Part shown: positions 7,449 through 63,458 of the stretch, piece after piece
Numbering within the stretch: position 1 is the stretch's first letter
Layout: every line of letters begins with the position of its first letter
Source: a virus
Virus record (IMG/VR): IMGVR_UViG_3300025424_000296
Span: 1 to 64,000 of that record
Reading direction: 5' to 3' (one strand)
DNA: 64,000 nucleotides
Made by a program: the position numbers and the translations under genes
The notes under the pieces: generated by a model
Told to the model about the DNA's origin: nothing
Databases searched by the model: none
What the model saw: the letters and a program-made list of their open reading frames with translations, nothing else

Positions 7449-7555
7449 TTTGGTTTCTTTCTTTAGCAACTTCTACATTTTAACTAATTTTTATTAGTTT
7501 GCGAATCTTTTTTAAGAAATTAATAACCATGAATAAATACCTACATATTTGGAGC

Positions 7556-8512
7556 ATGGCTATGAAAATGAAATTAGAAGACTATATAGAAAAATATGGA
7601 GAATAATCTGGTACTCGGCGATTTTATGGTATGCAAAAATTATTAAAGACCAGACAAAAAACATATGAATCTCATCCATATAAACGACTGACTAAGGAAT
7701 GGTTTATATGGCGATATCCGGGGGATGGGTTACAACGTTTCAACGACCATGTTAACAAATCGAGACAATCCGAAGAAAATATGATTAAAAGATACGGAGA
7801 AAAGTTAGGCAAGAAAAAATGGGAAGAAACTGTACAAAAGAAAAATACCTTATCTATATTAAAAGCTAAAGGAGGTGAAAAGGCGTTATTAGAATGGAAA
7901 GAAAAACGTAATAAAGGATATGATGCTTATTGGGATAAGTTGTCGGAACAAGAAAGACAACAAGTTATAAAGAACCGAACCAAAAAATCTAAAGTAACAA
8001 AAAGGCAAAGATATGGTAATAAGAAAAAAATTGAAATTTTTAAAGAAAAATACGGCGAAGATGGTTCAGTCGAATATGCGAAATATTTACAAACTATTTT
8101 TAAATCAATTGGATATTCAAAAGAATGTGAAAAATTTATAAAAGATTTGATTAATAGCTATCCAATTTTACAACAGTATACATTATTCTATAGAGATCAA
8201 AATAATAATAAGGTTGAGTGGTTTTTAACAGACGGTAACAACATATTTTTCTATGATTTATGCATAAAAGAACGTATGATATTAGTAGAATATGACGGAA
8301 GCAAATGGCATCCCACTTATGATCAATATCTAAATAATCCTGATGATATTATGGAGATAATTGGAATGTCCGTAAAAGAAAAATTTGAAAAAGATCAAAA
8401 TAAAATTTTATTAGCTGAACAAAAAGGCTATACTATATTTGTAGTTAGATCAGATATGTCTAAAGATGAAATAAATCGAATTATATTAGACATCATACAT
8501 GAGGTTAGTTAA
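7556..8512 (+). mobile_element. Putative homing endonuclease (KYG repeats plus C-terminal Vsr/DUF559-like nuclease) with in-frame TAA at 7604-7606
   Basis: FYD...VEYDG..WH...D..K...A...GY motif; upstream in-frame segment MAMKMKLEDYIEKYGE* with GGAG RBS. Confidence 0.7.
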
Positions 8513-8984
8513 AATGGAAGAATGTTTTACTTCAACTAAAAGTTATTATAATTATCCGTGTGCTCACAGACAATACAGGCATGACGGAAATTGTGCTAAA
8601 ATACACGGATATTCGAGATCTTTTCACTTTGTGTTTGGTGCAAAAACTATGACTAAAGAAGGATTTGTAGTTGATTACGGTGATTTAGATGATCTTAAAG
8701 CTCACTTAGATTATATGTATGATCACACACTTGTTCTTGATGAATCTGACCCATTTATGGATATGTTTAAACAATTAGAAGTAGCAGGTGTTTGTGACAT
8801 TAGAACTCATCCATTGGGACCAGGTATGGAAGGTACAGCTCATTATCTATGTGAATGGGCAGATAACTGGTTACGAAATAAAACAAAAGGCCGTGCCTGG
8901 GTAATTACTGTAGAAGCAAGGGAAAACGATAAAAATAGTTCAATTTATCGAAATCCGGATGCTGGTTTCAAAGGTTGGATTTAA
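8499..8984 (+). CDS. queD: 6-carboxy-5,6,7,8-tetrahydropterin synthase (QueD/PTPS family)
   Basis: CAHRQ...C..IHGYS, VVDYG.L, DHT, V..RE..KN. Confidence 0.88.
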   Translation: MRLVKMEECFTSTKSYYNYPCAHRQYRHDGNCAKIHGYSRSFHFVFGAKTMTKEGFVVDYGDLDDLKAHLDYMYDHTLVLDESDPFMDMFKQLEVAGVCDIRTHPLGPGMEGTAHYLCEWADNWLRNKTKGRAWVITVEARENDKNSSIYRNPDAGFKGWI

Positions 8985-9019
8985 CCTTAAGTATCTTAAG
9001 TAATAACCATAGAGCTAAA

Positions 9020-9077
9020 GCTATACTCCGACTTGCAGCCTACTAGGCTAAATATTACTAACATATCGGAGTATAGC
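9020..9077 (+). promoter_or_regulatory. RBS-sequestering hairpin enclosing a late promoter
   Basis: GCTATACTCCGA (9020-9031) / TCGGAGTATAGC (9066-9077) flank TAAATA (9049-9054). Confidence 0.75.
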
Positions 9078-9078
9078 C

Positions 9079-10218
9079 ATGACAAATTATAAACCAAGTC
9101 CTACATATTATCATGTAACATGGAATCAGGGTTCCCCAACTGATTATACAGATCTAACAGGTACACAAGCCGGTGGGTTAGATAGTGTTTCACCAATAAA
9201 ATATAATGAAAAAGTCAGTATTACCGGTAATGCATCAAGTCCAACAACTACTGCCGGCGATACATTGTTAATAAATGGTTATACTATATTATTTGGTTCT
9301 AGTTCACTGGCAGACATATTAACCACAATCAATATGTCAACTGTGCTTACAAATGTTATTGCACACAATGCTGTTAGTTCTAATTATGTAACACTTACAA
9401 ATGCAGATGGTTATGAAGGTTTGATTATCGAACTAGCCGAAGGCAATGGTGCGTTAGCCAAGTTGGGATTTACAGCGGGTTCATATAATGCACTTCTTAA
9501 CGGTGTTGGTGGAGCATTTACCAACTTTACAAACGGTGATGTTGTTACCATTAATGGTGTTAATATAACAATGACAACGGGCGGTGGATTAAATGTTGCC
9601 GGTGCTGTTGCTACAATTAATTCATTTACATCACTTACTGGTGTAGTTGCTATAGCTGCTGCTGGTACAGTTCAACTATCTAGTGTAAATGGTCAACCAT
9701 TTGTTACTGCCGGCTCTGCTGCATCTAAACTAGGGTTCCCAGCTGGTGTATATGCTGGTTCTCCCGGCACACTAGATCAAAGCACATCGAAAACTCAAGC
9801 TAATCTACGTTGGCAGCAGGTAGTTAATCAACTAGAAGTTTTTTCAACTCCGTTTATGTTAGCTGATCAATTGGGAACAGGTAACTACAGTGGCGACGAT
9901 GAGCTTACTACATTTTCATTTACAGTTGGATATGAGCATCCAGATCAAATTTTCACAGTTGCATTAGCATCTGAACCAGATGCGGGTACAGTATTGACTG
10001 GAACTGCTGCTATCAAAAGAGCTGTAGCAAGAGGCTTGACTGCGTCTTATACAGGTAATACCAATCTATTTGATCCAACTGTTGAAGTACGTAACGGTTG
10101 TGCTATAAGACCAAATCCAGTAAGAACTGTTAGACTAACAGCAGACGGGTTTGATACTGTTGCTAATATTGCCACTGTTGAAGGTAATATTACAGTTAGC
10201 ATGATTTCATTAGATTAA
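9079..10218 (+). CDS. Probable virion structural protein with two flagellin-hook-IN-like repeats
   Basis: Thr/Gly-rich; repeated GD...ING..I...IN...V.A...KLGF.AG.Y; late promoter. Confidence 0.65.
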   Translation: MTNYKPSPTYYHVTWNQGSPTDYTDLTGTQAGGLDSVSPIKYNEKVSITGNASSPTTTAGDTLLINGYTILFGSSSLADILTTINMSTVLTNVIAHNAVSSNYVTLTNADGYEGLIIELAEGNGALAKLGFTAGSYNALLNGVGGAFTNFTNGDVVTINGVNITMTTGGGLNVAGAVATINSFTSLTGVVAIAAAGTVQLSSVNGQPFVTAGSAASKLGFPAGVYAGSPGTLDQSTSKTQANLRWQQVVNQLEVFSTPFMLADQLGTGNYSGDDELTTFSFTVGYEHPDQIFTVALASEPDAGTVLTGTAAIKRAVARGLTASYTGNTNLFDPTVEVRNGCAIRPNPVRTVRLTADGFDTVANIATVEGNITVSMISLD

Positions 10219-10240
10219 GATCATAGGAGGTAGCGGTTTT

Positions 10241-11410
10241 ATGTTATTAACAATACTGTTACTGCTTTCTGCTCTGTGTCTAAGTTCAATAGCTGGATTT
10301 TATAGTGTATTAGGTATGACTGCTATATTTGCTGCATCGTGGTGGCCAATTGTCATAATGACCGGTACATTAGAGTTTAGTAAAGTTATAGTAGCCAGTT
10401 GGCTATATAGAAATTGGGGTAAAACGCCACTATTTCTAAAATCTTATTTTACTGTTGCTGTGATAATATTAATGTTTATTACCAGTTTAGGTATATTTGG
10501 ATTCTTATCTAAGGCACATATAGATCAAATAGCAAGTACTAGCGATAACCCATTGTTTATCAAACAAATTGATCAGCAAATTGCAACAGAACAAGCTCAT
10601 ATCGATGATAATAGAAAAGTTATTGCACAGATGGATAGTGCTGTTAATAGCGTGTTAAGTCAAAGTGTTTCTGAAAGCGCACAACGAGCCAATAAGGGTA
10701 GCACTATGGCACGACAAGCTACCATATTGCGAGACAGCCAGAAAAAAGATCGAAACTCTCTTAATAAATCTATAGATGAGTTAAATGCAAAAATCAGGGA
10801 CCTCAACAAGGAACGATTGAAGTTAGAGCAAGATCAAATAAAGATCGAAGCAGAAGTTGGTCCAATTAAATATATTGCTCAAATGATATATGGCAATAAT
10901 CTGGATAAGTCTCTGCTTGAAAAAGCTGTACAATATGTAATAATCATGATTATCATGGTATTTGACCCGCTAGCGGTATTAATGATCATTGCTGCCAACA
11001 TGAGTATGCAACAACTAGCTGAAGATAAAAAAGCCAAGAAAATTGCGGAAAATGAGGATATCGAACTTAAAAAAAAAGTAGATGAACCGATTTTAAACCG
11101 CATTATAGAACCATTAGATACATCAAACACTGATTTTGCTTTTAACCTAATAGATGATACAATAGATCACGTAATAGAGGAATCAATAGAGTCAGTGTCA
11201 GACGATTCGATAGCAGAACCATACTCATTGGAAAGCAATGTCGACAATGACATAACTATTATAGAAGAACCTGTTCAGGAGTTATTGTATGGTAATGAAA
11301 CAGAAGCTCCTTATGTTCCCTCTGTTGTTAATAAACCAGATGATGTATTGCAAAATATAAAAAAATATCATAATGTTAGATTAGATGATGCAAGACGCAC
11401 ATTAAAATGA
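10241..11410 (+). CDS. Membrane protein with long coiled coil
   Basis: Three N-terminal TM helices, coiled coil, C-terminal TM with FDPLA motif, acidic tail. Confidence 0.75.
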   Translation: MLLTILLLLSALCLSSIAGFYSVLGMTAIFAASWWPIVIMTGTLEFSKVIVASWLYRNWGKTPLFLKSYFTVAVIILMFITSLGIFGFLSKAHIDQIASTSDNPLFIKQIDQQIATEQAHIDDNRKVIAQMDSAVNSVLSQSVSESAQRANKGSTMARQATILRDSQKKDRNSLNKSIDELNAKIRDLNKERLKLEQDQIKIEAEVGPIKYIAQMIYGNNLDKSLLEKAVQYVIIMIIMVFDPLAVLMIIAANMSMQQLAEDKKAKKIAENEDIELKKKVDEPILNRIIEPLDTSNTDFAFNLIDDTIDHVIEESIESVSDDSIAEPYSLESNVDNDITIIEEPVQELLYGNETEAPYVPSVVNKPDDVLQNIKKYHNVRLDDARRTLK

Positions 11411-11434
11411 TCTTTAATTTGAATAGGACAAATT

Positions 11435-12694
11435 ATGGGAAGCGGTAAACAATTGCATACTTGTAACTTTTGCGGTAAAAATCAATTAGAAGTAGAAAAA
11501 TTAATATCTGGTAATGATGTATTCATTTGTAATGAATGTATCACACTATGCTATGACATTCTAGAAGATGATAACGAAGAAAAAAAGAAAAAATCCAAGA
11601 AAGATTTGATAAGTCCTGCTGCTATCAAGACATTTCTTGATGATCGTGTGATTGGACAAGATATTGCTAAACGCATGCTAAGTGTTGCCATTTATAATCA
11701 TTATAAAAGAGTCAATAACCCAGTAATAGATGGGGTTGAAATTGATAAAAGTAACATGCTATTCATTGGTAGTAGCGGTGTTGGTAAAACATACATAGTA
11801 CAAAACATTGCCAAGATACTTGATGTACCATTTGTTATTGTTGATGCTACCAGTTTAACTGAAAGTGGATATGTGGGTCTCGATGTAGAGGAAGCTATCA
11901 CCAGACTTTATCAATCAGCTAATCAGGATATTGAAAAGACTCAGCGTGGTATTGTATACATTGATGAAATTGATAAGAAAGCTCGTAAAAGTGAAAGCAG
12001 TAGCATAACACGCGATGTTAGCGGTGAGGGCGTACAGCAAGCACTACTCAAAATGATGGAAGGTTGCGAAGTCAAAGTTCCCCCTCAGGGCGGACGTAAA
12101 AATCCACACGGTGAGTTTATTCTAGTAGACACTAAAAATATCTTGTTCATTGTCGGCGGGGCATTTGTTGGCTTATCAAAAGCCATTGCCAAACGACTCG
12201 ACAAGGATAATACAGGAATAGGATTTGGTGCCAAATTCTCATCCAATGATGAGGAAGAAAAGAATAGTATTGAATATCTTAAAAAGGTAGACAGTGACGA
12301 CTTAACCAGTTTTGGATTGATACCTGAAATGATCGGACGTTTACCAATTATTGTTCCTTTTGCAGATTTGGAAGAAGACGATTTGGTTAAAATTCTTCTT
12401 GAACCAAAAAATGCCATAATTAAACAGTATCAAAAAATGTTTAAATTGGACAATGTTACATTGGAGTTCGAACCTGAATCATTGAATGCTGTTGCTAAAT
12501 TAGCAATCAAAAGAAAAACAGGTGCCAGAGGATTGAGAAGTATTCTGGAATCAATATTATTACCTATACAGTTTGACTTACCAACTTATTCAGCTAATAA
12601 TATAGAGAAGATCGTTATTACAGACGAGTTTATAAACGGAGGTAAAGAGCCATTGTTAGTATATCGTACAGCAACCAAGGAACAGACTACATGA
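11435..12694 (+). CDS. clpX: ATP-dependent Clp protease ATPase subunit ClpX
   Basis: C4 zinc finger, Walker [13 protein letters not shown] pore loop, [22 protein letters not shown] loop, GARGLR. Confidence 0.97.
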
Positions 12695-13251
12695 AACCTG
12701 GGGTGAAATTTGATAGAAGAGCAAATTCAGAACCAGAATATATTGTAAACAACTGGATACGTAGCTCTAGTGTTAGATTAATCGATGAAACTGGAACAAA
12801 TGTAGGAGTTGTCGATACTAAACAAGCATTAAATCAAGCAAGAGATCTTGGATTAGATTTAATAACAATTGCCAAAGATGCCGAACCTCCTGTTTGTAAA
12901 ATATACGAACTTAGTAAGTACATTTATGAGCAAAAAAAGGTCAAGAAAGAGCTTGATAAAAAGAACAGAGAAAATGCTATTATTGTCAAGGAAATACAGA
13001 TTAGACCTCATATCACCGAGCATGATCTACTGATAAAACAAAAACATGCCAAAGAATTTTTAGAAGAAAATCACAAGGTAAGAATTGTGATGAAATTCAG
13101 AGGACGAGAAATTGCTTTTGCTAAAAAAGGCTTTGAACTTGTCACCAAGTTTATAGATGGATTAGGGGAGCATAAGGTTGAAAAAGATCCTAGTCTAGCC
13201 GGTAACACTATATTAGCTATACTTGCACCGTTGGCTAGACAATCGAAATAA
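12691..13251 (+). CDS. infC: Translation initiation factor IF-3
   Basis: VRLID..G.N.G...A...A...GLDL...PPVCKI, KEIQIRP.I..HD, FRGRE. Confidence 0.95.
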
Positions 13252-13311
13252 ATTAATTTGCTTTAATATAAGCTTTTACTTACAATTAGGTATCAACAGG
13301 GAAATATAAAG

Positions 13312-13617
13312 ATGTTTGATAAAAATGATGATCCGTTTCACGGTAAACGAGGTGTAAGCGTTAAAGTATTCAATAACAACATTAATGGTGCTATTGCACA
13401 GTTAAAGCGTAAAAGCAATGCAGAGGGTATCAATCGAGAGTTGCGTAAGCGCAAGCATTTTGAACCAAATACCATGAAACGTCGTCGTAAACTAGCAGAA
13501 GCTCAATTACGTTGGCGTAAGAAGCAAGATCAAATTAATGAAGTTGTAAAACCAAAAAAGAAAACTGCTACACCACCTTCTCAGGCACCTCGCCGAGAAG
13601 TTGAAACCAACTCATAA
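13312..13617 (+). CDS. rpsU: Ribosomal protein bS21 with N- and C-terminal extensions
   Basis: V.V.NNNI..A...LKRK...EGI.RELR.R.HFE....KRRRK. Confidence 0.88.
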   Translation: MFDKNDDPFHGKRGVSVKVFNNNINGAIAQLKRKSNAEGINRELRKRKHFEPNTMKRRRKLAEAQLRWRKKQDQINEVVKPKKKTATPPSQAPRREVETNS

Positions 13618-13628
13618 GAAGACACCCG

Positions 13629-14054
13629 ATGAAAAAACAAACCGCTATTACAGCAGGATTATTATTAGTCCTGCTTGGAGGTTGTGTACATTCAAACACA
13701 GATTTTGTATCAACATTTGAAGAAAATGAGATCAGAACGCCGCAGCCTGTTATGGGGGAACATTACTTTGACGCAGCACTTGATACATTAGAAAAATCAT
13801 GTGATCAAGGAAAATCAGAGAAATTACAAGCAGCTGATTCGGTCATGAAAAAAATTGTTGAATTGGGTTTAGATAATCACGGTCACAAACTAAAAGATGC
13901 AAATCCAGAATTGATCAGAGCTGGTAATACCTTATACAAATTAACCATGGAATTTTATAATAACAACACAGATCCAGCGTATTGCAGAACACAAGTTAAT
14001 GTTATAGGTCGTTATTTAGATCTTGTACATCCTAATTTTAGTTCTAAAAATTAA
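13629..14054 (+). CDS. Putative lipoprotein
   Basis: MKK-hydrophobic-LGGC lipobox. Confidence 0.65.
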   Translation: MKKQTAITAGLLLVLLGGCVHSNTDFVSTFEENEIRTPQPVMGEHYFDAALDTLEKSCDQGKSEKLQAADSVMKKIVELGLDNHGHKLKDANPELIRAGNTLYKLTMEFYNNNTDPAYCRTQVNVIGRYLDLVHPNFSSKN

Positions 14055-14099
14055 TGTAGTGAGTCTTGACTATCCTATCGAGAGTAAATATATTATCAG

Positions 14100-14162
14100 T
14101 GTAGATGCTCATGTGAGGTCTACAATGTAATAACATACTTCGCTTTAATAGGAGGTAATATC
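14100..14162 (+). promoter_or_regulatory. ROSE-like RNA thermometer leader of the sHsp gene
   Basis: 5' hairpin TGTAGA...TCTACA; 3' hairpin TACTTC-G-CT-TTAAT-AG-GAGGTA with bulged G opposite the SD. Confidence 0.65.
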
Positions 14163-14639
14163 ATGCGTAGTTTAAATGTAACCGCCTCAACTCTCGAGGA
14201 CCTTTTCCAAGACCTTAATCGTGTAGCTATTGGCTTTGAGCCAACTATTCGAAGATTACACGATGTACAAAATGCATTTTCGTCTAATCCCAACGGATAC
14301 CCGCCGTATGATTTAGAAATGGTAGAAGATGATCATTATAGAATCACATTAGCAGTAGCAGGCTTCTCATTAGATGATTTGGATATCGAAACAGCTAATA
14401 ATCAATTGACTATTACCGGTGAGATCAAAAACAAAGATGAGGATAGACAATATCTATTTAAGAGTATTGCAACTAGATCATTTAAACGAGTGTTTCACCT
14501 AGCTGATCATGTTAGAATTGAATCTGCTGATCTTGCTGACGGATTATTAACTGTTGACTTGATCAGAGAAGTTCCAGAAGCACTAAAGCCTAGGAAAATT
14601 GCAATCTCGAGTCAAAAAGTCATTGATGCTAAACTCTAA
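14163..14639 (+). CDS. ibpA: Small heat shock protein (IbpA/Hsp20)
   Basis: YPPYDLE, YRITLAVAGF, IATRSF.R.F.LADH, GLL.V.L.REVPE..KPRKI.I. Confidence 0.95.
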   Translation: MRSLNVTASTLEDLFQDLNRVAIGFEPTIRRLHDVQNAFSSNPNGYPPYDLEMVEDDHYRITLAVAGFSLDDLDIETANNQLTITGEIKNKDEDRQYLFKSIATRSFKRVFHLADHVRIESADLADGLLTVDLIREVPEALKPRKIAISSQKVIDAKL

Positions 14640-14662
14640 ATCATGATATTATGATTTGATAG

Positions 14663-14691
14663 ATAAGGTGGGATTACTCCCACCTTATTTC
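14663..14691 (+). terminator. Intrinsic terminator after ibpA
   Basis: ATAAGGTGGGA-TTAC-TCCCACCTTAT-TTT. Confidence 0.75.
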
Positions 14692-14742
14692 ATGCTTGAC
14701 AACAACTCAGTGTTGTTTATAATTGTTCTAATAGCGGAGAAC

Positions 14743-15066
14743 ATGATTATGAGCAAAATGCAAACCAAAGACGATGCTTCAACGCAAGTATTAGAAAAGG
14801 TAGTTGTACAACCTCCGAGAAAGTGGAACGTAGTTCTATATAATGATAATGTTACCACTATGGAATTTGTAATATTGGTATTGATGCAGATCTTCCACAA
14901 AAGTTTTGAAACTGCTAGTGATATTATGATAAACATTCACGAAAATGGTAAAGGTATTGCAGGTACTTACTCTAATGAAGTGGCAACACAAAAGCGAGAC
15001 GAAACTGTATCTGCTGCCAAATCAAATGGCTTCCCACTTAAATGTGAACTTGAACCTGCTGAATAA
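14743..15066 (+). CDS. clpS: N-end rule adaptor ClpS
   Basis: VVLYNDNVTTMEFV..VL...F...A..IM..IH..GKG.AG.Y..EVA..K...FPL; GGAG RBS before 14743. Confidence 0.93.
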   Translation: MIMSKMQTKDDASTQVLEKVVVQPPRKWNVVLYNDNVTTMEFVILVLMQIFHKSFETASDIMINIHENGKGIAGTYSNEVATQKRDETVSAAKSNGFPLKCELEPAE

Positions 15067-15142
15067 TTCAAAAATTTCTACGTATAATCTAAAAGGATTA
15101 AATAGTCTAGTTTAGCTGATACTCGCTTATCGGAGGTTAGTT

Positions 15143-15379
15143 ATGGATATACGTGATATAGTCTGGGACGAGGATGGCGAGATGCACTGCCATCAATTAT
15201 ATAGTTCGGATGTTACAATTGAAGATGTACCAAAATTAATTCAGGAACATCGCGATTTACGTCGAGCTTTACATGCCACAGTAGAATTACTAAAGAAAAT
15301 GGATTATAATCCAAATAATCCTAGATCTCGGCACGAATGGGATATTATCAATGAATTAAAGCGTAAACTAATCATTTAA
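15143..15379 (+). CDS. Hypothetical protein
   Basis: GGAGG RBS, TAAATA upstream. Confidence 0.6.
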   Translation: MDIRDIVWDEDGEMHCHQLYSSDVTIEDVPKLIQEHRDLRRALHATVELLKKMDYNPNNPRSRHEWDIINELKRKLII

Positions 15380-15401
15380 AATGTTTACATATAGTACCTG
15401 C

Positions 15402-15464
15402 TAAGTTGTTGATTTTGAATTGGTAAAAATACCGGTTGACAGCCATTATTTTGATAGTAAAGTT
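15402..15464 (+). promoter_or_regulatory. IHF-consensus site plus sigma70-like promoter
   Basis: Inverted AATCAACAACTTA (15402-15414); GGTTGACA with -35 at 15436. Confidence 0.55.
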
Positions 15465-15516
15465 ATATTGCAACAAACGGACAATGGTGTCCCAAACGTA
15501 CAAAAGGAGTAGTTGC

Positions 15517-15849
15517 ATGTCAGATCGTACTTTCAATATCGCTGGTTTTTCATCACTTTCCGGCCAGCGCAAGGTTCGCTTTGCCAATGGCACTGTTGAG
15601 GCCCGTGCAAAGATTCTAGAGCGTAATGGTCATGTTGACATTGACCTACGTGAGCTTCCTCGTGCAATGTCCAAGTCAGAAGCTATGGCGTTCCTTGAGG
15701 TTACTGCTGAGGACGTTCGTGCTCCTAAGGGTGTGCAGGCTGCTGCTGCTAAGGCTCGCAAGGGTGTTAAGGTTGCAGAAGTTATTGCAATTGCCAAGGA
15801 TGCTGGTAAGGCTCGTGCTAAAGAAGCTGCTGAGGAAATTGCAGCTTAA
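15517..15849 (+). CDS. Basic early protein with Ala/Lys-rich tail; paralog of 23745..24239
   Basis: AGGAG RBS; F.IAG.S...KVRFA...R.K.LE.NGH...L.ELP.AM.K..A.AFL shared with paralog. Confidence 0.8.
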   Translation: MSDRTFNIAGFSSLSGQRKVRFANGTVEARAKILERNGHVDIDLRELPRAMSKSEAMAFLEVTAEDVRAPKGVQAAAAKARKGVKVAEVIAIAKDAGKARAKEAAEEIAA

Positions 15850-15952
15850 TTTAAATTAGATTAATGGGGGACAGTTAGTCCCCCACTCTTTTATCATAAT
15901 TCGAAATTTGCATATGATATCATAAGACTGCTTAATTATGTAGAGCAGAATT

Positions 15953-16264
15953 ATGATATCATTACCTCCATTGATAAAATTAATATTAGTATTACAGCAT
16001 TGGTCAGAGACTTGCAGCGAGTTTTGGACAGATACAATACAGCCAACTGATGACCCAGTTGGAGAATTTATCAGAGATTATTCACTATATACATTTGAAT
16101 GGAAAATTTCAAGACCCCTTATACCTCGCAAGTGTTTTATTACCAATGACTGGTTATGGGGTCGTAGACATTATTGTGTTACAGTACACGACATAACCGG
16201 AATATTCGATATAAAAATTTGGATAGGTCTTGAAATAGGTACACAGATTAAGTTAATGTTGTAA
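15953..16264 (+). CDS. Hypothetical protein
   Basis: ORF track. Confidence 0.5.
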   Translation: MISLPPLIKLILVLQHWSETCSEFWTDTIQPTDDPVGEFIRDYSLYTFEWKISRPLIPRKCFITNDWLWGRRHYCVTVHDITGIFDIKIWIGLEIGTQIKLML

Positions 16265-16292
16265 TCATTTATTAAAAATTATTCTAAAGACT

Positions 16293-16388
16293 CTTGTAAT
16301 TTGAAAAAATATTCCTTATATAATTAACTTGCTAGCCTATTTAGGTAGCAAAACTTATACACATCTTGCTTTTTAAAGGAGATAGCAT
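16293..16388 (+). promoter_or_regulatory. RpoH-type promoter and ROSE-like leader of dnaK
   Basis: CTTG-N18-CTTATAT (16293-16321); hairpin 16329-16351; ATCTT-G-CTT..AAG-GAGAT (16363-16383) pairs the SD. Confidence 0.6.
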
Positions 16389-18254
16389 ATGACACGTACT
16401 ATCGGAATAGATCTTGGAACTACTAATAGCTGTGTAGCCATCATGGAAGGCGGCAAGGCAAAAGTAATCGAAAATGCAGAAGGCGCACGTACAACACCAA
16501 GTGTTGTAGCATGGACTGATCAGGAACAACTGGTCGGACAGCCTGCAAAGCGTCAAGCAATAACCAATCCAGAAAATACAGTATTTGAAGCTAAACGTTT
16601 AATTGGGCGTAGATTTGACGATCCAACTGTTAAGAAAGACATGAAGAGTTTATCATATCATGTGGTAAAAGCCGACAACGGCGATGCATGGGTAGACATC
16701 AAGGGCAAGAAATATAGCCCACAGGAAATTTCAGCACAAGTCTTACAAAAGATGAAGAAAACTGCTGAAGACTATCTTGGGTCACCTGTGACCAAAGCAG
16801 TTATCACAGTACCTGCATACTTTTCAGATTCTCAGCGTCAAGCAACCAAGGATGCTGGCAAGATTGCTGGATTAGAAGTCCTACGTATTATCAACGAGCC
16901 AACTGCGGCTGCTATGGCATTTGCTGTAGACAAGGGTGGTTCTGGTAAAGTTGTAGTAGTCGACGCTGGTGGTGGCACTCACGACGTTTCGGTGTTAGAT
17001 ATCGGTGACGGTGTCATCGAAGTGTTATCCACTAACGGTGATACACACCTTGGCGGTGCTGACTTTGACGAAGTTGTATTCCATTATCTAGTAGATGCAT
17101 TTAAAAAAGAAAACGGAATAGATCTTACCACAGATAAGATGGCAGTACAGCGTCTAAAAGAAGCTGCTGAAAAGGCCAAGATTGAACTTTCAAGTGCAAC
17201 TGAAACTGACATCAATTTACCATATATTACAGCAGATAGTTCTGGGCCAAAGCATCTTGTTACCAAACTAACTCGTGCTAAGTTTGACAGCCTTACAGAA
17301 GATCTTGTTAAACGCATCATTGCTCCGTGTAAGCGAGCTCTTAAGGATGCTAACCTAAAAGTTAGTGATATCAAAGAAGTGTTGTTAGTAGGTGGTACCA
17401 CTCGTATTCCTGCTGTTAAGACAGCTATTAAAGAGTACTTTGGTAAGGAGCCAAATAACTCTGTTAATCCAGACGAAGCAGTTGCTATTGGTGCTGCAAT
17501 TCAGGGAGGTGTTCTAGCCGGCGATGTCAAGGACGTGGTACTACTAGACGTTACACCATTAAGCCTTGGTATCGAAACATTGGGTGGTGTGTTTACTAGA
17601 CTAATTGATCGCAACACTACTATTCCTAGCAAAAAGAGCCAAGTGTTCTCTACTGCTGAAGACAATCAACCTGCTGTTACTATCCGTGTGTTCCAGGGTG
17701 AACGCGAAATGGCCAACGACAATAAGTTGTTGGGTCAGTTCAATTTGGAAGGTATTGCTCCGGCACGTCGTGGTATGCCTCAGATCGAAGTTACATTTGA
17801 TATTGATGCTAACGGCATTGTTAATGTCAGTGCTACCGACAAGGGAACTGGTAAGGAACAGAAGATTTCTATCCAGGCTAATGGCGGACTTGACGACAAG
17901 GATATCGAGCGTATGATCCGAGAAGCTGAAGAAAATGCTGAAGCTGACAAGAAAAAGCGTGAAATTGTGGATGCCCGTAACGGTGCTGATGCAATGATAG
18001 CCAGAGTTGAAAAAACCCTCGAAGAGGACGGTGATAAGATTGATGCAACTCTTAAAGCAGAGGTTGAGCAAGCTATTACTGATCTTAAAGCAGTTATGGA
18101 TAGCGAAGACGCAGAAGTTATACGTAATAATACCAATGCATTGGCTCAGGCTAGTATGAAAATTGGCGAAATCATGTATAAAGAAGCACAAGCCAACGCT
18201 GCTAAACCTGATGATGATGACATCATTGACGGAACAGCTGAAGAAGTAGCATAA
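16389..18254 (+). CDS. dnaK: Hsp70 chaperone DnaK
   Basis: [47 protein letters not shown]; full length. Confidence 0.98.
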
Positions 18255-18262
18255 TATGCCTT

Positions 18263-18478
18263 ATGCAGGCTATTAGTTATACAGATAATTTTGATAGTAT
18301 GGGATGGGGGTTTTTTATGTTCCCCCATCCAGTTTCTTTAAAAGACGTTGAAAACTTGCTCGGTGTGGACTATATAAATCCAAAAGATATACAAATTTAT
18401 CAAATGCATAGTTGTAATGGTATCATCGTGGTTCACAATTTAGAATTGGCTATGATGCTTAAATTTAAACTATTATGA
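18263..18478 (+). CDS. Hypothetical small protein
   Basis: ORF track; ends AMMLKFKLL. Confidence 0.45.
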   Translation: MQAISYTDNFDSMGWGFFMFPHPVSLKDVENLLGVDYINPKDIQIYQMHSCNGIIVVHNLELAMMLKFKLL

Positions 18479-18521
18479 GTACAAGGTTGAGTTTACTTGT
18501 GTAGTGCCTTAAACTGTATGT

Positions 18522-19190
18522 ATGATAGAATCAACTGAAATTATACAAATTGATTTTGATCGGATGCCGCCAAATGTCAAACAATTTATTGAAGTTGAAT
18601 TGAATAAGTGTAGACAGCACAACATCAAAATAAACCTACCAAAAACCAAAACTATTACACATAACGGATTGTTTGAATGTGCTGGATATTTTGATCAAGA
18701 GCCAGAAGAATTTGCAGTAGCCTGTGCTAAAAGTTACAAAACTTGGCTCAGTATTTTTGTTCACGAGAGTTGCCATATGGATCAATGGATAGAAGATATT
18801 CCCTTATGGCACGAACAAGTAAACGACGAAGATCCATTGGATTTAATGGACGAGTGGTTACTTAAAAAACGAGAACTCAACGACGAAGATTTAAATCGAG
18901 TCTTTGATATTGGATCAATGATAGAGTTAGATTGTGAAAAGCGTAGTGTTGATAAGATAAAAAAATATAATCTACCAATAAATCTAAACAGATATATTCA
19001 AAAAAGCAACGGATATGTTTGGAGTTATAGACTAATGCAGGAAACTCGCGACTGGGATCATAGTGCAGCATACGGACTTCCGGAGGTGTGGAAATCAATG
19101 CCCAAACACTTTGATAATGATTATTCGACTTTACCAGACAATATTAGAACTGTATTTTACAAACACATAGAGAAGTTTTCTAAAATCTAA
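18522..19190 (+). CDS. Putative zincin-like metalloprotein
   Basis: GYF...FVHESCHMDQ (HExxH) and downstream ELDCE. Confidence 0.6.
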   Translation: MIESTEIIQIDFDRMPPNVKQFIEVELNKCRQHNIKINLPKTKTITHNGLFECAGYFDQEPEEFAVACAKSYKTWLSIFVHESCHMDQWIEDIPLWHEQVNDEDPLDLMDEWLLKKRELNDEDLNRVFDIGSMIELDCEKRSVDKIKKYNLPINLNRYIQKSNGYVWSYRLMQETRDWDHSAAYGLPEVWKSMPKHFDNDYSTLPDNIRTVFYKHIEKFSKI

Positions 19191-19411
19191 TGACTCGAAT
19201 AGGTTTAATAGATGTAATTACCAGGAATACTGACTTTTATCATGCCAAGATAGATGTAGAGCACGTATTAGATGCTGTAGAATGGTGTGAAAATCATCCA
19301 AGTAACGGGATATTTTTTATCAAATGGGGTTATCTAACAGGCGACATCTTTGGTACGTTTGGATTCTCTGAGTCAGAAGATCACACGACTTTTAGTCTAA
19401 GATGGTGCTAA
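19190..19411 (+). CDS. Hypothetical phage protein
   Basis: AVEWCE...F....D...F.LRW pattern; TAATG coupling. Confidence 0.6.
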   Translation: MTRIGLIDVITRNTDFYHAKIDVEHVLDAVEWCENHPSNGIFFIKWGYLTGDIFGTFGFSESEDHTTFSLRWC

Positions 19412-19511
19412 TCAAAATACTTTGGTTCTGTAGTTGACCTATACCATATTATATTATAACATGTTAAAGCAACTTATAAATTGTCATGTTGCACTAAAAA
19501 GGAGATTACAT

Positions 19512-19736
19512 ATGACAACTTTAACTCAAGCAGAGAAGGTTCTCGATTATCTTGAGGCCGGCCGTACACTGACATCAAAGCAAGCTCGTGCTCGCTTTGG
19601 TATTCAAAATCTACGTGCTCGTATTTCAGAGCTACGTTCAGAAGGCTATAACATTGTATCAGAATCAGTTACATTTCGTGACACTGGTGCTCCTGGTGTT
19701 AAGTATCTTCTAGGTGGTCGCCGTCGTCACGCTTAA
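19512..19736 (+). CDS. Winged helix-turn-helix DNA-binding protein
   Basis: Q..KVL.YL..G..LT..QA...FGI.NLRARISELR..GY.I; AGGAG RBS. Confidence 0.8.
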   Translation: MTTLTQAEKVLDYLEAGRTLTSKQARARFGIQNLRARISELRSEGYNIVSESVTFRDTGAPGVKYLLGGRRRHA

Positions 19737-19760
19737 TTGTGTAACGATACGATTATAATT

Positions 19761-19784
19761 AAAGGGCTCTATGAGCCCTTTTTT
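19761..19784 (+). terminator. Intrinsic terminator
   Basis: AAAGGGCTC-TAT-GAGCCCTTT-TTT. Confidence 0.75.
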
Positions 19785-19821
19785 ATTGTATATGGTTTCA
19801 ATTATATTGTATGCTTGCGAC

Positions 19822-20007
19822 ATGAAAAAGCCTGTTAATCATGAAATGGTCAAGATAGACGAGGTACTAAAGGTACTCGATGATTTCAGAGTGGATATCA
19901 AGCAAACTTATAAATCTTCAGATCTTATTGATCAAATAGAACGCAAGATATTAACATTAGAGACCAAACGACGATTAGTTGTTATAGACGGTGGCAAGAA
20001 CAAGTAA
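19822..20007 (+). CDS. Hypothetical protein ending LVVIDGGK
   Basis: ORF track; C-terminal L.VI.GGK motif is common in alphaproteobacterial proteins. Confidence 0.55.
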   Translation: MKKPVNHEMVKIDEVLKVLDDFRVDIKQTYKSSDLIDQIERKILTLETKRRLVVIDGGKNK

Positions 20008-20017
20008 AGGACAAAAA

Positions 20018-20467
20018 ATGAACCCAATAATCAGAATGGATCTACCTCATGGAATGGTATTAATAGAGTGTTTTCCAAATTTAGCTCCAACACACGTAGC
20101 ACAAATTATTAAAATATCAAATGACGGTGCATATGATGGGGTACCATTTCATAGAGTTATCGATGGCTTTATGGCACAAGGCGGAGCTACTATGAAAGGC
20201 TATCCGCAGCTTCAAGCTGAATTTAATGATGCTCCGCACGTAGAAGGCATGTGTAGTATGGCTAGAACCCCTGATCCAAACAGTGCAAGTGATCAGTTCT
20301 TTATTTGCATAGCTAATGCACAATTTCTAGATAGACAATACACAGTATGGGGTCGAGTGATGTATGGAATTGAACATGTCCACGCAATTGCCAAGGGTGA
20401 ACCACCTGCAAATCCAACACCAATTGTCAAAATGCGATCAGTTGATCCTACAAGCATTGGAGCATAA
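20018..20467 (+). CDS. Cyclophilin-type peptidyl-prolyl isomerase
   Basis: AP.HV, YDG..FHRVIDGFMAQGG, SMAR..DPNSA..QFFI, LD.QYTVWG.V. Confidence 0.95.
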   Translation: MNPIIRMDLPHGMVLIECFPNLAPTHVAQIIKISNDGAYDGVPFHRVIDGFMAQGGATMKGYPQLQAEFNDAPHVEGMCSMARTPDPNSASDQFFICIANAQFLDRQYTVWGRVMYGIEHVHAIAKGEPPANPTPIVKMRSVDPTSIGA

Positions 20468-20469
20468 TT

Positions 20470-20724
20470 GTGGATGTTCTCGATTTTACAATGCTGGAAA
20501 ATCAACTGAGTCATAGCAAAGTTAAGATTGAGTTTATCAAAGTCGATGGTACATATCGAGTTATGATATGTACCAAATCTCCAGTAATAATTACGTCCGC
20601 AAATATGCCAGCTAATACCACAAACGCAGTGAACCAATCAATACTTAAGGTTTTTGATTTGGAAAAACAAGCTTGGAGAAGTATGCGCAAAGATCGTATA
20701 ACACAATGGGAACTATATGAATAG
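20470..20724 (+). CDS. WYL_2/SH3-like beta-barrel protein
   Basis: F.K.DGT.R.M.CT...VFDLEKQAWRS. Confidence 0.75.
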   Translation: MDVLDFTMLENQLSHSKVKIEFIKVDGTYRVMICTKSPVIITSANMPANTTNAVNQSILKVFDLEKQAWRSMRKDRITQWELYE

Positions 20725-21451
20725 TAAATGGTTAGAAAATCTTCAGAATCCTATGAACCAAAATGGGGTTTACATGATAGAAAGGTTTTCTAAAATTTTA
20801 AATTTAATAAATCCAAGTGAAATTAAAACAATATTTGAAATTGGAAGTTGGCATGCTATTGATGCACTAAATTTAGCGTATGTCTTTCACGATGCTGATG
20901 TTCATGTATTCGAACCAGTTCCTGAAAATATGAAACAGTGCGTGACAAATTTAACAATACCGCCAGATTCGGTTGCTAATCGTGTTCATTTACATGAGAT
21001 TGCTGCTAATGATGTAACCGGACCAATGTACTTTTATCCACTTGACTTAGAAAAACAGATAGGTGATAATCACGGTATCGGAAGTAAATTTCAATTGATA
21101 GATCCAAACTTTTATCAAAATCAACATAATATACAACGTAAAATAACCGTACAGGGTTATAGACTAGATGAATGGTGTAAAGAAAATAATATTGATAGTG
21201 TTGATTTCATTTGGATGGATGCACAGGGATCTGAACTTGATGTTCTAAAAGGTCTTGACAATATGCTAGATCACACTCAGATCATTATGACAGAAGTTGG
21301 AGTTAAAGAGTATTATCATGGGCAAACCCTTAAACCAGAAATAGACGAGTTTTTAGAAGCTCGAGGATTTATTGAATACACACCAAGTAGACGATATGCA
21401 CATGAGTATGAAATTGATACTATATACTTAAATCAAAAAATTAAATATTGA
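20717..21451 (+). CDS. FkbM-family methyltransferase
   Basis: IFEIGS, FEP.P, RLDEW, DFIWMDAQGSELDVLKG. Confidence 0.9.
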   Translation: MNSKWLENLQNPMNQNGVYMIERFSKILNLINPSEIKTIFEIGSWHAIDALNLAYVFHDADVHVFEPVPENMKQCVTNLTIPPDSVANRVHLHEIAANDVTGPMYFYPLDLEKQIGDNHGIGSKFQLIDPNFYQNQHNIQRKITVQGYRLDEWCKENNIDSVDFIWMDAQGSELDVLKGLDNMLDHTQIIMTEVGVKEYYHGQTLKPEIDEFLEARGFIEYTPSRRYAHEYEIDTIYLNQKIKY

Positions 21452-21492
21452 TTAATTAAGCGTTTGAAATTATTAGGCTAATTTATTTAAAA

Positions 21493-22275
21493 TTAGCCTA
21501 TTTGTTTCATTTCTGGTTGGTTACCAATTTGCTTAACTGAATCTTGCTCTGGCCAAGCATAGATATATTTGCCCATCATGTCCTGGACAACTAAGAATCT
21601 AATTCCAGATGCAGTGTAGCTGATAGTATCTGCAGTATATCCCTGCATGGTAGAACCGTAATCCATTTTAGCACGATCAACTTCTTCGCCGTTGGTCTTT
21701 AACCATTTGGCCACGGCATCAACTTCTCTGTTACTATTTGGACCTTGTCCACCTAGGTTAGCAATGACCGTAATATCTTCGATTGGAGTAGTAGTATATG
21801 GTTTGAATGTTTCCCTACCAAGCACACGAATCTGCTTGCTCATATAACCTGGAAGATTCTTAACTTGATGCCAGTCTGGGTTGACAGTTGACTGATCACC
21901 TACTTCGCTGCCAACAGTTGTCATTGCTTTGCTAATAAGCGCAGGAACTGTATCTGCTGCAACTGGTGTTGCACTTGCTGCGGGTAAATCTGGCTCTGCT
22001 GCTAATGCTGCATCAGGTATGTTCAAACTTCCTAATTTTTGAGCAGCATCTGGACTCATGTTTACCTTGCTCATGGCTTTTTTGGTAGCAGGTGCAGAAG
22101 CTTGTTTGAGTTTTGGTAATTCAGCTTTGTTATCCGGCTTTCCCACACTTGACTGTGATTTTGCAGTGGTTAATTCGCCCTTTGAAGTGGGTTCATCAAA
22201 CATTGTATCCCAATCTATATCAGTTGGGTCTGTTGTTTTTGTTGGTTTTGCTTCGGTGATCTCGTGTATTTTCAT
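21493..22275 (-). CDS. Hypothetical late protein, MKIHEITEA N-terminus
   Basis: TAAATA 8 nt upstream of ATG 22275; low-complexity N-half and folded C-half. Confidence 0.7.
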   Translation of the reverse strand: MKIHEITEAKPTKTTDPTDIDWDTMFDEPTSKGELTTAKSQSSVGKPDNKAELPKLKQASAPATKKAMSKVNMSPDAAQKLGSLNIPDAALAAEPDLPAASATPVAADTVPALISKAMTTVGSEVGDQSTVNPDWHQVKNLPGYMSKQIRVLGRETFKPYTTTPIEDITVIANLGGQGPNSNREVDAVAKWLKTNGEEVDRAKMDYGSTMQGYTADTISYTASGIRFLVVQDMMGKYIYAWPEQDSVKQIGNQPEMKQIG

Positions 22276-22332
22276 AGTGATATTATTTATTTGAAAACTG
22301 TGATGTAGCAAAAATGCAACACTCTAATTTCT

Positions 22333-22362
22333 GGTTGACAGCTGATTAAAAGACGTTATAGT
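22333..22362 (+). promoter_or_regulatory. Early sigma70-like promoter
   Basis: GGTTGACA-N16-TATAGT. Confidence 0.7.
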
Positions 22363-22392
22363 GTCACTATGACCAATAGGAGACCTCCAAAA

Positions 22393-22521
22393 ATGGCTAA
22401 AATCAATCCAGTTGCGAAAGCATTGGCTAGCGGTTCATGCCGTCCACAGGTTGTAAAAGCTCGCAAAGGTAAAGGCTCATATTCCCGTCGAGAACGATAC
22501 AGGCCGCTCGGGCGATACTGA
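22393..22521 (+). CDS. arfA: ArfA-like alternative ribosome rescue factor (42 aa, not in ORF track)
   Basis: MAKINPVAKALASGSCRPQVVKARKGKGSYSRRERYRPLGRY contains the ArfA signature N...AL.....R..V.K..KGKGSY.R; AGGAG RBS; TGATG coupling. Confidence 0.7.
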   Translation: MAKINPVAKALASGSCRPQVVKARKGKGSYSRRERYRPLGRY

Positions 22522-22979
22522 TGTTAGCTAATCGAGATAAACGTATCATGCAATTTATTAGGCGTCAAGCAATTGACGTTGAAAAGGTTAGTAATGCTCG
22601 TGTCGCTGCGGGTATTGCTATTAAAGGACAGTTGATCTCAACTGGCAAAAACAGCCGACGAACTCACCCCTTCCAGAAACAATTTAGTAAGAACGATCAT
22701 GCAATATTTTTTCATGCTGAAACTTGCGCTATTAGCAATAGCCTTAACCATATCCATAAAGACGATCTAAGACGTGCTACCTTGTTTATACATCGTGTTA
22801 AAATACCACTGCGATACAGTACAGAATGGGTAGATGGATTAGCTAAACCTTGTAATGGTTGCATGGCTGCTGTTGCTGCATTTAATATTCGCAGAGTTGT
22901 GTATAGTACAGATGTAAACCACAAATATGTGATATTAGAACGTAATAGTAAATGGTCTTGTGACGAGATAGGAGTATAA
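22521..22979 (+). CDS. Zn-dependent cytidine/adenosine deaminase superfamily protein
   Basis: HAE and PCxxC motifs. Confidence 0.85.
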   Translation: MLANRDKRIMQFIRRQAIDVEKVSNARVAAGIAIKGQLISTGKNSRRTHPFQKQFSKNDHAIFFHAETCAISNSLNHIHKDDLRRATLFIHRVKIPLRYSTEWVDGLAKPCNGCMAAVAAFNIRRVVYSTDVNHKYVILERNSKWSCDEIGV

Positions 22980-22980
22980 A

Positions 22981-23262
22981 ATGAAAGATCTAATAGCAAC
23001 TGTACGTGAGTATTCAAACAAAATCATAAACGATAGAGAACCTGTAGACATATTCGAAGCTCTACGCGACGAGGTAGAAGAGCTTGATGCAGAAATGTAC
23101 GGATATAGCCAAGGTGAAGATGGTATAGCAGGTGAAGCAATTGATGTTATTAATTGTGCGTTGGATTTGATCTTCAAAGCCAATCCAGAATGGACCAATG
23201 ATGATATCGTAGCATATGCTGAAAAGAAATGCCAGAAATGGTTAGAGAAAAATAGTGGTTGA
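22981..23262 (+). CDS. MazG-like NTP pyrophosphohydrolase
   Basis: DEVEEL...GEAIDVI..ALD (ExxE...ExxD). Confidence 0.75.
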   Translation: MKDLIATVREYSNKIINDREPVDIFEALRDEVEELDAEMYGYSQGEDGIAGEAIDVINCALDLIFKANPEWTNDDIVAYAEKKCQKWLEKNSG

Positions 23263-23287
23263 CATACAGTAGTCAGATGCTACTGTA

Positions 23288-23380
23288 ATACAAACAACGG
23301 ACAACTGGACGCAGGCCCTGCGAAGTGAGATAGGGAGGTAGCTGCCCGAAGGCATGGAGGGTGTCCGTTGGTTTGTGTAT
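23288..23380 (+). ncRNA. Candidate structured small RNA or 5' leader
   Basis: Starts right after TTGACA-N16-TACTGT promoter; 16-bp closing helix with one bulge; internal hairpins CGCAG/CTGCG and TGCC-CGAA-GGCA; GC-rich. Confidence 0.5.
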
Positions 23381-23396
23381 AAACAAGGAGTGAGAC

Positions 23397-23612
23397 GTGA
23401 AAAATGCAGTCCACTTTGTTGGTTTCAGAGGCAACGAATATGTAAACGCAGTTCGAGTTTTTGGTAAACCGGACTTTGTACATCGCTCCTGGGATATCCG
23501 CGCCCAGCAAGAAGTTGACCAAAATGATAGGGTTATTTTCGCTCGTACCCGAGATTTAGAGCGTATACAGACGCCAAAAAGCCAGGCTTTTGACGATTCT
23601 GCGGTAATGTAA
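23397..23612 (+). CDS. Hypothetical protein (VHFVGFRG.EY..A.RVFG.PDFVH..WD)
   Basis: AAGGAG RBS, GTG start. Confidence 0.75.
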   Translation: MKNAVHFVGFRGNEYVNAVRVFGKPDFVHRSWDIRAQQEVDQNDRVIFARTRDLERIQTPKSQAFDDSAVM

Positions 23613-23638
23613 ACAAACTTTTTTCCTTGATTTAGTAA

Positions 23639-23705
23639 AATCAACGACTTATAAGCACCAAAATGTTTAGATTTTGGTTGACGGGACAGCTAATGGTGCT
23701 ATTGT
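23639..23705 (+). promoter_or_regulatory. IHF-consensus site plus early promoter
   Basis: AATCAACGACTTA (23639-23651); TTGACG-N13-TGC-TATTGT. Confidence 0.65.
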
Positions 23706-23744
23706 ATGTGTATAAGCAGTTAAACACAAACAAGGAGTAAACAA

Positions 23745-24239
23745 ATGGATAAGGTTTTTGCAGTTGCCGGCATTAGCAAAATGGACGGCGTTTACAAGGT
23801 TCGCTTTGCTAAAGACATGAGTCGTGTTAAGGTTCTCGAGAAGAACGGGCACACGTATGTGCGCTTGATAGAACTTCCCGAGGCTATGGACAAGGCTGCT
23901 GCTGTTGCATTCCTTAAGGCTCATAAGAGCTTCCAGGATACGGTAGCACAGGATACACTTGCTGGTGAAGGTAAGGCAGCTCCGGCTCCAAAAGTCAAGG
24001 CAGCTAAACCAAATATTGCTCAACCAACTTTTGTTCCTAAGGCCGAAGTTGCTAAGACTCCTGCGGAAATCGAGCGCATCAAAGCCAAGAACTTGGCTAC
24101 ACTGCGTAAGGTTGGCAAGAGCTGGCAGGAAGTCCGTGATACAGAAGGTGAGCAAATGCTTGTTGAAGCCATGGAACATATTGATGCTCTTAGCGAAGCT
24201 GGTGTTCCTAACTACCGTTGGGCTCGAATTGATGACTAA
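23745..24239 (+). CDS. Basic early protein, paralog of 15517..15849
   Basis: AAGGAG RBS; shared N-domain; Ala/Lys/Pro-rich linker; hairpin terminator follows. Confidence 0.8.
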   Translation: MDKVFAVAGISKMDGVYKVRFAKDMSRVKVLEKNGHTYVRLIELPEAMDKAAAVAFLKAHKSFQDTVAQDTLAGEGKAAPAPKVKAAKPNIAQPTFVPKAEVAKTPAEIERIKAKNLATLRKVGKSWQEVRDTEGEQMLVEAMEHIDALSEAGVPNYRWARIDD

Positions 24240-24338
24240 TAGAGAGGGGCCAAGTCCCCTCTCAACTTTTTGGTTGACAAGTTACAAATACATGCTACTA
24301 TATCCATACAACATCAATTAGCAACAAAGGACCACGTT

Positions 24339-26705: not shown

Positions 26706-26909
26706 GTGGTAAAAGTATATCAACAAGACACATATAATTATTACCCAGATGAACCCTCCGCTTCATATAGAGAAGGTTTACGAGCATATAGAAGTTGGTT
26801 AAATTCCGGCAATCGACGCCCAGAAAATCCCTACTGGTTTGGATTAGATGAAAGCAGAGATTATCTCGAATGGGAACGCGGTTGGCTAGATGGTAGCTTT
26901 GAAATCTAA
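26706..26909 (+). CDS. Ribosome modulation factor (RMF)-like protein
   Basis: Y.EG..A....G....NPY.......W..GW..G matches the RMF-fold signature; GGAGG RBS; TAAATA upstream. Confidence 0.5.
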   Translation: MVKVYQQDTYNYYPDEPSASYREGLRAYRSWLNSGNRRPENPYWFGLDESRDYLEWERGWLDGSFEI

Positions 26910-63382: not shown

Positions 63383-63458
63383 GCTGGTGTAGCTCAGTTG
63401 ATAGAGCGCGGCATTAGTAATGCCGATGTCGGGAGTTTGAACCTCTCCACCAGCACCA
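63383..63458 (+). tRNA. tRNA-Thr(AGU)
   Basis: GCTGGTG/CACCAGC, CGGCA-TTAGTAA-TGCCG, GGGAG-TTTGAAC-CTCTC, ACCA. Confidence 0.88.

Follow-up and report, generated by a model that had tools for sequence, protein, structure and literature searches.

The window analysed here comprises positions 1-64,000 of an IMG/VR virus record of 113 kb with a G+C content of 37.5%. CheckV estimated a completeness of 28% for the record, so that it probably represents part of a huge-phage genome. A short gene on the plus strand of this window encodes a 42-residue peptide that begins with MAKINPVAKAL, contains the core K25-G-K-G-S-Y30-S-R32 and ends with RYRPLGRY. The gene, its upstream signals and the genes that follow it are arranged as follows:

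22335-22362, plus strand: sigma-70-type promoter (TTGACA at 22335-22340, a 16-nt spacer, TATAGT at 22357-22362)
22378-22382, plus strand: Shine-Dalgarno sequence AGGAG, read from the sequence, 10 nt 5' of the arfA-like ATG
22393-22521, plus strand: arfA-like gene, 42 codons plus TGA at 22519-22521
22521-22979, plus strand: cytidine/dCMP-deaminase-family gene, 152 aa (PF00383, E = 1.6e-9; phrog_174)
22981-23262, plus strand: MazG-like pyrophosphatase gene, 93 aa, the third in the unit (phrog_1247, E = 5e-15)
23258-23286, plus strand: second promoter of the GTTGACA-N16-TAnnnT family, overlapping the MazG-like stop codon
23397-24239, plus strand: two further ORFs, 23397-23612 (71 aa) and 23745-24239 (164 aa)
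24242-24263, plus strand: intrinsic-terminator-like hairpin of 8 pairs (6 of them G-C), followed by a T run

The initial annotation of this DNA had described a strong promoter and ribosome-binding site in front of a 42-residue frame with a KGKGSY.R core, and each of these elements was recovered. The promoter is an 11/12 match with the top sigma-70-type score in the interval 21.4-25.4 kb, AGGAG lies 10 nt before the ATG, and the core is made up of K25-Y30 together with R32. An in-frame ATG at 22369, 7 nt past the -10 hexamer, could give rise to a leaderless form of 50 residues; the start at 22393 is favoured because of the N-termini of the homologues. A 9-nt inverted repeat (GTTATAGTG / CACTATGAC; 22355-22373) extends over the -10 hexamer and the transcription start predicted at 22369-22370. 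In a second sample, a 3.8-kb contig is 99.7% identical to the record over 20261-24066, and none of the 11 differences falls within 22333-22521. Metagenomic relatives of the peptide carry lake-type sample names, and those at 71-85% identity agree with the 42-residue peptide in length and start. A megablast search with the interval 21.4-25.4 kb gave no match among isolated phages.

The upstream neighbour of the arfA-like gene (21493-22275) lies on the opposite strand. Together with the promoter and the string of plus-strand genes, this orientation places the arfA-like gene at the head of a transcription unit, in agreement with the earlier suggestion that it leads a promoter-driven series of genes. 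Its stop codon and the start codon of the deaminase-family gene overlap (TGATG), and translational coupling between the two is therefore probable. The deaminase-family protein is divergent and of the zinc type, with HAE and PCxxC motifs present; it may be of either the dCMP type or the tRNA type. A tRNA-Thr with the anticodon AGT (A34), which would require A-to-I editing, is encoded at 63383-63458. Pfam and PHROGs searches found no family for the ORFs 23397-23612 and 23745-24239, and the hairpin behind them likely marks the end of the arfA-like transcription unit.

The promoter at the head of this unit is one of 10 copies of the pattern GTTGACA-N16-TAnnnT in the window, all of them on the plus strand (at 15435, 22334, 23258, 24273, 35870, 38231, 38726, 39043, 52647 and 54981). 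Because only 0.33 copies would be expected by chance, we regard them as a real phage promoter class. Most carry TGC ahead of the -10 hexamer, and every copy that was inspected (part of the 10) has a ribosome-binding site and an ORF behind it. We infer that the class is of an early type, because its consensus is host-type (sigma-70-like).

Within the genome of this huge freshwater phage, the arfA-like gene is part of the takeover region. Within about 15 kb 5' of it lie the following translation and proteostasis genes, each identified by Pfam or tblastn:

7092-7448, minus strand: Smr-domain nuclease
11435-12694: ClpX
12691-13251: IF3
13312-13617: bS21
14163-14639: Hsp20
14692-15066: ClpS
16389-18254: DnaK
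20018-20467: cyclophilin

A PTPS gene is also located in this island (7092-20467). In a distant relative of the phage (L197), an ArfA-like gene follows that of DnaK at a distance of about 0.8 kb. Searches of the 113 kb (about 28% of the genome) for a release-factor domain, SmpB or tmRNA gave no match, so that any release factor involved would be that of the host. Comparisons of the phage IF3 and DnaK with other proteins singled out no host. Five to six tRNA genes are present in the window. The segment 63464-63587 (124 nt) matches the Rfam tRNA model end to end with 44 bits, and ARAGORN made no call for it; judged by the match to the model, it is a predicted tRNA gene with a long insertion. A 67-residue ORF at 26706-26909 was considered as an RMF-like protein and rejected, as it had no Pfam match at E <= 0.1.

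On sequence comparison, membership of the 42-residue peptide in the ArfA family is established. The Pfam profile PF03889 (ArfA) matched the peptide with 28.9 bits (gathering threshold 25.5; E = 7.9e-7), aligning residues 17-36 with profile positions 24-43, and a six-frame search of the record returned the same match with 27 bits. A profile built from the peptide and seven relatives matched E. coli ArfA in the PDB with E values of 7e-7 to 1.4e-6; the search recovered each of the six different E. coli ArfA sequences, which represent 12 ribosome-structure entries. When a profile of 34 short relatives was aligned by hhalign with one of 15 canonical ArfA sequences (from Pseudoalteromonas, Colwellia, Vibrio and Aliivibrio), the match between the short clade and gammaproteobacterial ArfA reached a probability of 98.3% (E = 2e-14), and peptide residues 3-38 were placed without gaps on residues 19-54 of gammaproteobacterial ArfA. 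Individually, 33 of the 34 short relatives match Pfam ArfA. The initial annotation had made its ArfA assignment subject to an HMM search; Pfam, PDB-profile and profile-profile comparisons have each returned a match and uphold it.

KGKGSY and R32 are invariant in close relatives, with R32 nearly invariant among the 34 relatives, and the channel-binding half is the best-conserved portion of the short ArfA-like peptides. The N-terminal helix motif NP[VI]A[KR]xL is near-invariant in the short clade. NCBIfam and PHROGs gave no match for the peptide. Membership in DUF7230 (PF23876) was rejected, the score of 18.2 bits lying below the gathering threshold of 27 and only 5 of the 34 relatives matching at E <= 0.01. 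The peptide has no GGQ motif, and PF00472 (ArfB and class I release factors) is absent from the whole 113-kb record. Given the very short length and the basic, low-complexity composition of the peptide, we also considered that the frame might be open by accident. This explanation is hardly credible in view of the Pfam match above threshold and of the approximately 1,000 clusters of relatives found at E <= 0.001 among 1.84 billion representatives, and it was rejected on the conservation of sequence, length and start.

When 1.84 billion cluster representatives (50% identity) were searched with an HMM, 1,023 proteins matched at E <= 0.001, 108 of them at E <= 1e-10; the median length in the best 148 of the 1,023 is 48 residues. 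Relatives are encoded on at least 233 IMG/VR contigs, as determined by a pattern scan, and in a set of one genome per species 85 matches were obtained, mostly in Pelagibacteraceae and also in Pseudoalteromonas, Colwellia, Vibrio and Rhodospirillales. SAR11 and other Alphaproteobacteria encode peptides of 36-49 residues that score above the Pfam ArfA cut-off (L094, L083, L092 and L095, and about 50 loci of Pelagibacteraceae, L084-L159). These have the same short N-x-x-A-K-x-L ... KGKGSY layout as the phage peptide, with Lys at the position of E. coli Ala18, but they are chromosomal and only 44-59% identical to it. A review describes ArfA as restricted to Beta- and Gammaproteobacteria (PMC8012679), and a 2024 survey recorded arfA in 0 of 2,376 alphaproteobacterial genomes (PMC11633108); the short alphaproteobacterial and phage family has therefore been missed. 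Short ArfA-like genes with a natural stop are common in phages and SAR11. The family is under-studied and wider than the reviews state, and it is there that the remaining interest lies.

Isolated phages of Alphaproteobacteria that encode an ArfA-like peptide include Caulobacter phage Cr30 and Erythrobacter phage vB_EliS-L02, in both of which the ORF is unannotated, as well as others. The Cr30 ORF (KF301602.1; L205:2453-2605) has the core KGKGSF and is flanked by the genes for GMP reductase and an RNA ligase; its stop overlaps the following start codon. The Caulobacter control genome gave no ArfA match; together with the Cr30 homologue, this indicates that the RF2 of some hosts has never co-evolved with ArfA. 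Cr30 offers a tractable system for functional work.

Phage ArfA genes have been annotated before, namely g10 of Citromicrobium phage RXM (PMC8953757) and gp30 of pelagiphage HTVC027P, whose transcripts occur both early and late during infection (PMC12753301). Both are phage-encoded and assigned to PF03889 or ArfA, and on the basis of annotation they appear to be of the same kind as the peptide described here. HTVC027P and RXM are a marine podovirus and siphovirus of other lineages and with other hosts, whereas our peptide is from a huge freshwater phage. In addition, the JGI/IMG protein collection contains the exact peptide with a precomputed PF03889 assignment, and two of its relatives are named ArfA by JGI. 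The term 'unannotated', as used initially for the gene, is therefore only half correct, and the novelty had been overstated. Phage ArfA genes are a known kind to which the 42-residue gene adds another member; as one more example, it opens no new question by itself.

The occurrence of similar chromosomal peptides in SAR11, Rhodospirillales, Vibrio, Pseudoalteromonas and others is compatible with a passenger gene, acquired from a host and retained without a specific role in infection. We judge this very unlikely, since the gene has a consensus-grade promoter and a good ribosome-binding site, occupies the first position of its unit and is coupled to the next gene. It has also been kept in huge-phage contigs (71-85% identity) and, near DnaK, in the distant relative, and the number of viral contigs with relatives speaks against a mere passenger as well.

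The residues of the peptide were mapped onto E. coli ArfA by combining the hhalign result with a second alignment, in which the gammaproteobacterial profile was compared with E. coli ArfA. By this mapping N5, V7, A10, L11 and C16 of the peptide correspond to N14, I16, L19, L20 and F25 of E. coli ArfA, the strand-equivalent segment P18-V21 to Q27-E30, K25-Y30 to K34-Y39, R32 to R41, R35-Y36 to K44-H45, and Y42 to W51. The peptide has the KGKGSY-x-R core in common with E. coli ArfA (YhdL; PF03889; PDB 5MDV, 5MDW, 5U4I, 5H5U, 5MGP, 7OJ0), as well as the hydrophobic helix pattern N-x-[IV]-x-x-[AL]-L and the basic tail for channel binding, located at residues 31-42 in the phage peptide. Residues 15-24 of E. 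coli ArfA form a short helix, Q27-E30 contact RF2 as a strand added to its sheet, and the C-terminus occupies the mRNA channel, 46-48 residues being ordered on the ribosome in cryo-EM structures (PMC8012679). AlphaFold2, run on the 34-sequence alignment, predicted a helix at residues 6-13 of the peptide (pLDDT > 80), consistent with the E. coli helix, and an unstructured remainder; the model would suit a peptide that becomes folded only upon binding to its target. Truncation of ArfA to 40 residues (1-40) abolishes activity (PMC8012679). The phage peptide continues for 12 residues past KGKGSY and ends at the equivalent of W51, beyond position 40 and covering the 46-48 ordered residues. It therefore spans the functional core, and its size is that of the active truncated E. 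coli ArfA core.

The differences from E. coli ArfA concern the N-terminus and two defined positions. Residues 1-9 of E. coli ArfA have no equivalent in the phage peptide, which retains only M1-N5 of the segment 1-14 that becomes ordered upon RF2 opening. Lys9 takes the place of Ala18, where a small residue is required for RF2 activation in E. coli; A18T ArfA binds and recruits RF2 without activating it (PMC8012679). Lys or Arg is found at this position in 107 of 129 short-clade proteins, and one residue before it there is a near-invariant Ala (123 of 129). The pocket motif K44-H45 is represented by R35-Y36, which is basic-aromatic but not K-H; the equivalent pair is K-Y in the closest relatives and variable throughout the short clade. 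Lys9 and the reduced N-terminus lower our confidence in an E. coli-style activation of RF2. As judged from the alignments, neither these features nor the R-Y pair would bear on family membership, which is based on homology. Activity would also depend on compatibility with the RF2 of the host; Thermus RF2, for example, is recruited but not activated by E. coli ArfA (PMC8012679).

The Lys at the Ala18 equivalent and the strongly reduced N-terminus, combined with the superior conservation of the channel-binding half, would also suit a ribosome-binding blocker that fills the empty A site and the channel without activating RF2, as A18T does, and that competes with tmRNA-SmpB. Truncated phage products could in this way be spared ssrA tagging and ClpXP, or the quality control of the host could be disabled; the phage encodes its own ClpX and ClpS, so the fate of tagged proteins is of importance to it. 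This alternative appears unlikely to us for the following reasons: the SAR11 and other alphaproteobacterial homologues share both the Lys and the short N-terminus, and a pure blocker encoded on the chromosome would be harmful; the near-invariant NP[VI]A[KR]xL helix argues for a specific partner besides the channel; and stalled ribosomes that are never resolved would be costly to the phage, too.

A rescue factor that senses empty-channel ribosomes in the manner of ArfA but has a different partner, either RF1 in addition to RF2 or another hydrolase, or that acts on another ribosome state, was considered as well. BrfA (Bacillus) and ArfT (Francisella) are small basic peptides that sense the empty mRNA channel and recruit a class I release factor. 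ArfT additionally uses RF1, and the two peptides illustrate that partner specificity can change (PMC8012679); neither is homologous to our peptide, which matched no such family. The divergence of its N-terminal half from E. coli ArfA, of which Pfam aligns only residues 17-36, and the existence of homologues in phages of ArfA-less hosts could point in this direction. The segment aligned with the RF2 strand and the hydrophobic helix pattern are nevertheless conserved without gaps, and neither a release-factor domain nor SmpB or tmRNA is encoded in the 113 kb (about 28% of the genome); we therefore give a changed partner little credence.

The expression of E. coli arfA is governed by an internal hairpin, either an RNase III site or a terminator, that results in a message without a stop codon, and the product appears only once tmRNA is overwhelmed (PMC8012679). 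This tmRNA-gated non-stop control is absent from the phage gene. Its ORF contains no internal hairpin or terminator and encodes no hydrophobic tail, the RNA over and past the ORF folds no better than shuffled sequences (z +1.04 and z -0.16 in two tests), and in the 170 nt scanned past the core the best hairpin is located in the deaminase-family gene and lacks a T run. Given the gene's own stop, the lack of a terminator or RNase III hairpin and the coupling to the deaminase-family gene, tmRNA gating of the E. coli kind is impossible. The natural stop without a hydrophobic tail reported initially was thus confirmed (TGA, with no significant hairpin in folding or terminator scans), and 'constitutive' is the correct reading of the gene's architecture.

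A G+C-rich hairpin between core and stop was found at five other viral loci (L005, L033, L047 on a 561-kb contig, L051 and L057; core-adjacent hairpin ORFs at L005:4090-4210, L033:4090-4210, L047:4080-4225 and in L057). A T-rich tail at L005, L033 and L057 gives it the form of an intrinsic terminator, so that the non-stop-mRNA layout known from E. coli arfA also exists in viruses. Among others, Rhodospirillales, Thalassospiraceae and other Alphaproteobacteria (L083, L090, L092, L105, L110) also have a hairpin between core and stop; at the non-SAR11 loci L083, L090, L092 and L105 an intrinsic terminator lies within the ORF, unlike in the phage gene. The SAR11 genes (about 38 residues) end with a plain natural stop, as the phage gene does, and in marine gammaproteobacterial arfA the hairpin extends across the stop codon. 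We regard the recurrence of this ArfA-specific device on the short-clade core as the best indirect evidence that the clade does ArfA-type work. The family represents a natural experiment, in which the same core occurs with and without tmRNA-gated non-stop control.

ArfA ORFs of Pseudoalteromonas and Colwellia (L086-L088, L096-L101, L119, L141, L152, L155, L157, L160, L161) end with ...ESYL[IM]AA, a sequence similar to the last residues of the ssrA degradation tag. The stop codon lies under the hairpin in Colwellia and in Pseudoalteromonas L101; at L086-L088 and L097-L099 the strong hairpin is located past the stop.

Based on the homology and the mapped segments, we consider it probable, with some reservation, that the short ArfA-family peptide is an RF2-recruiting rescue factor for stalled ribosomes. 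The basic C-terminal half (K22-Y42, including the KGKGSY loop) would enter the mRNA channel left empty when a ribosome has stalled on the 3' end of a truncated mRNA, and the helix 6-13 and P18-V21 would recruit host RF2 and hold it open. Ribosomes stuck on cleaved host mRNA, as suggested initially, may be the substrate. RF2 would then hydrolyse the peptidyl-tRNA, and the ribosome would return to the pool without tmRNA tagging, presumably to the benefit of the phage. The peptide would be made whenever the operon is transcribed. If active, it would provide a huge phage with its own untagged route of ribosome release beside IF3, bS21, chaperones and Clp components, and the gene would be part of a viral programme that runs the host translation apparatus.

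A wider proposal is put forward only tentatively and with more doubt than confidence: the short clade may constitute a distinct, tmRNA-independent class of rescue factors, characterized by Lys at the Ala18 position, a near-absent N-terminus and a natural stop (here, in SAR11 and in many but not all relatives). Expressed from an early promoter as a takeover or counter-defence tool, such a peptide might recycle ribosomes without tagging during the destruction of host mRNA or the cleavage of mRNA or tRNA in abortive infection, perhaps in conjunction with the phage Smr nuclease and ClpX. It might do so in ArfA-less hosts as well, and its activation of RF2 would be unlike that by E. coli ArfA.

At several marine viral loci (L016, L020, L021, L043, L062, L071 and L076) the ArfA-like module is fused to a C-terminal region of 70-110 residues. 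This region, for which no Pfam family was found, contains the motif NYTKPxMRK...GQWSARKAQ.
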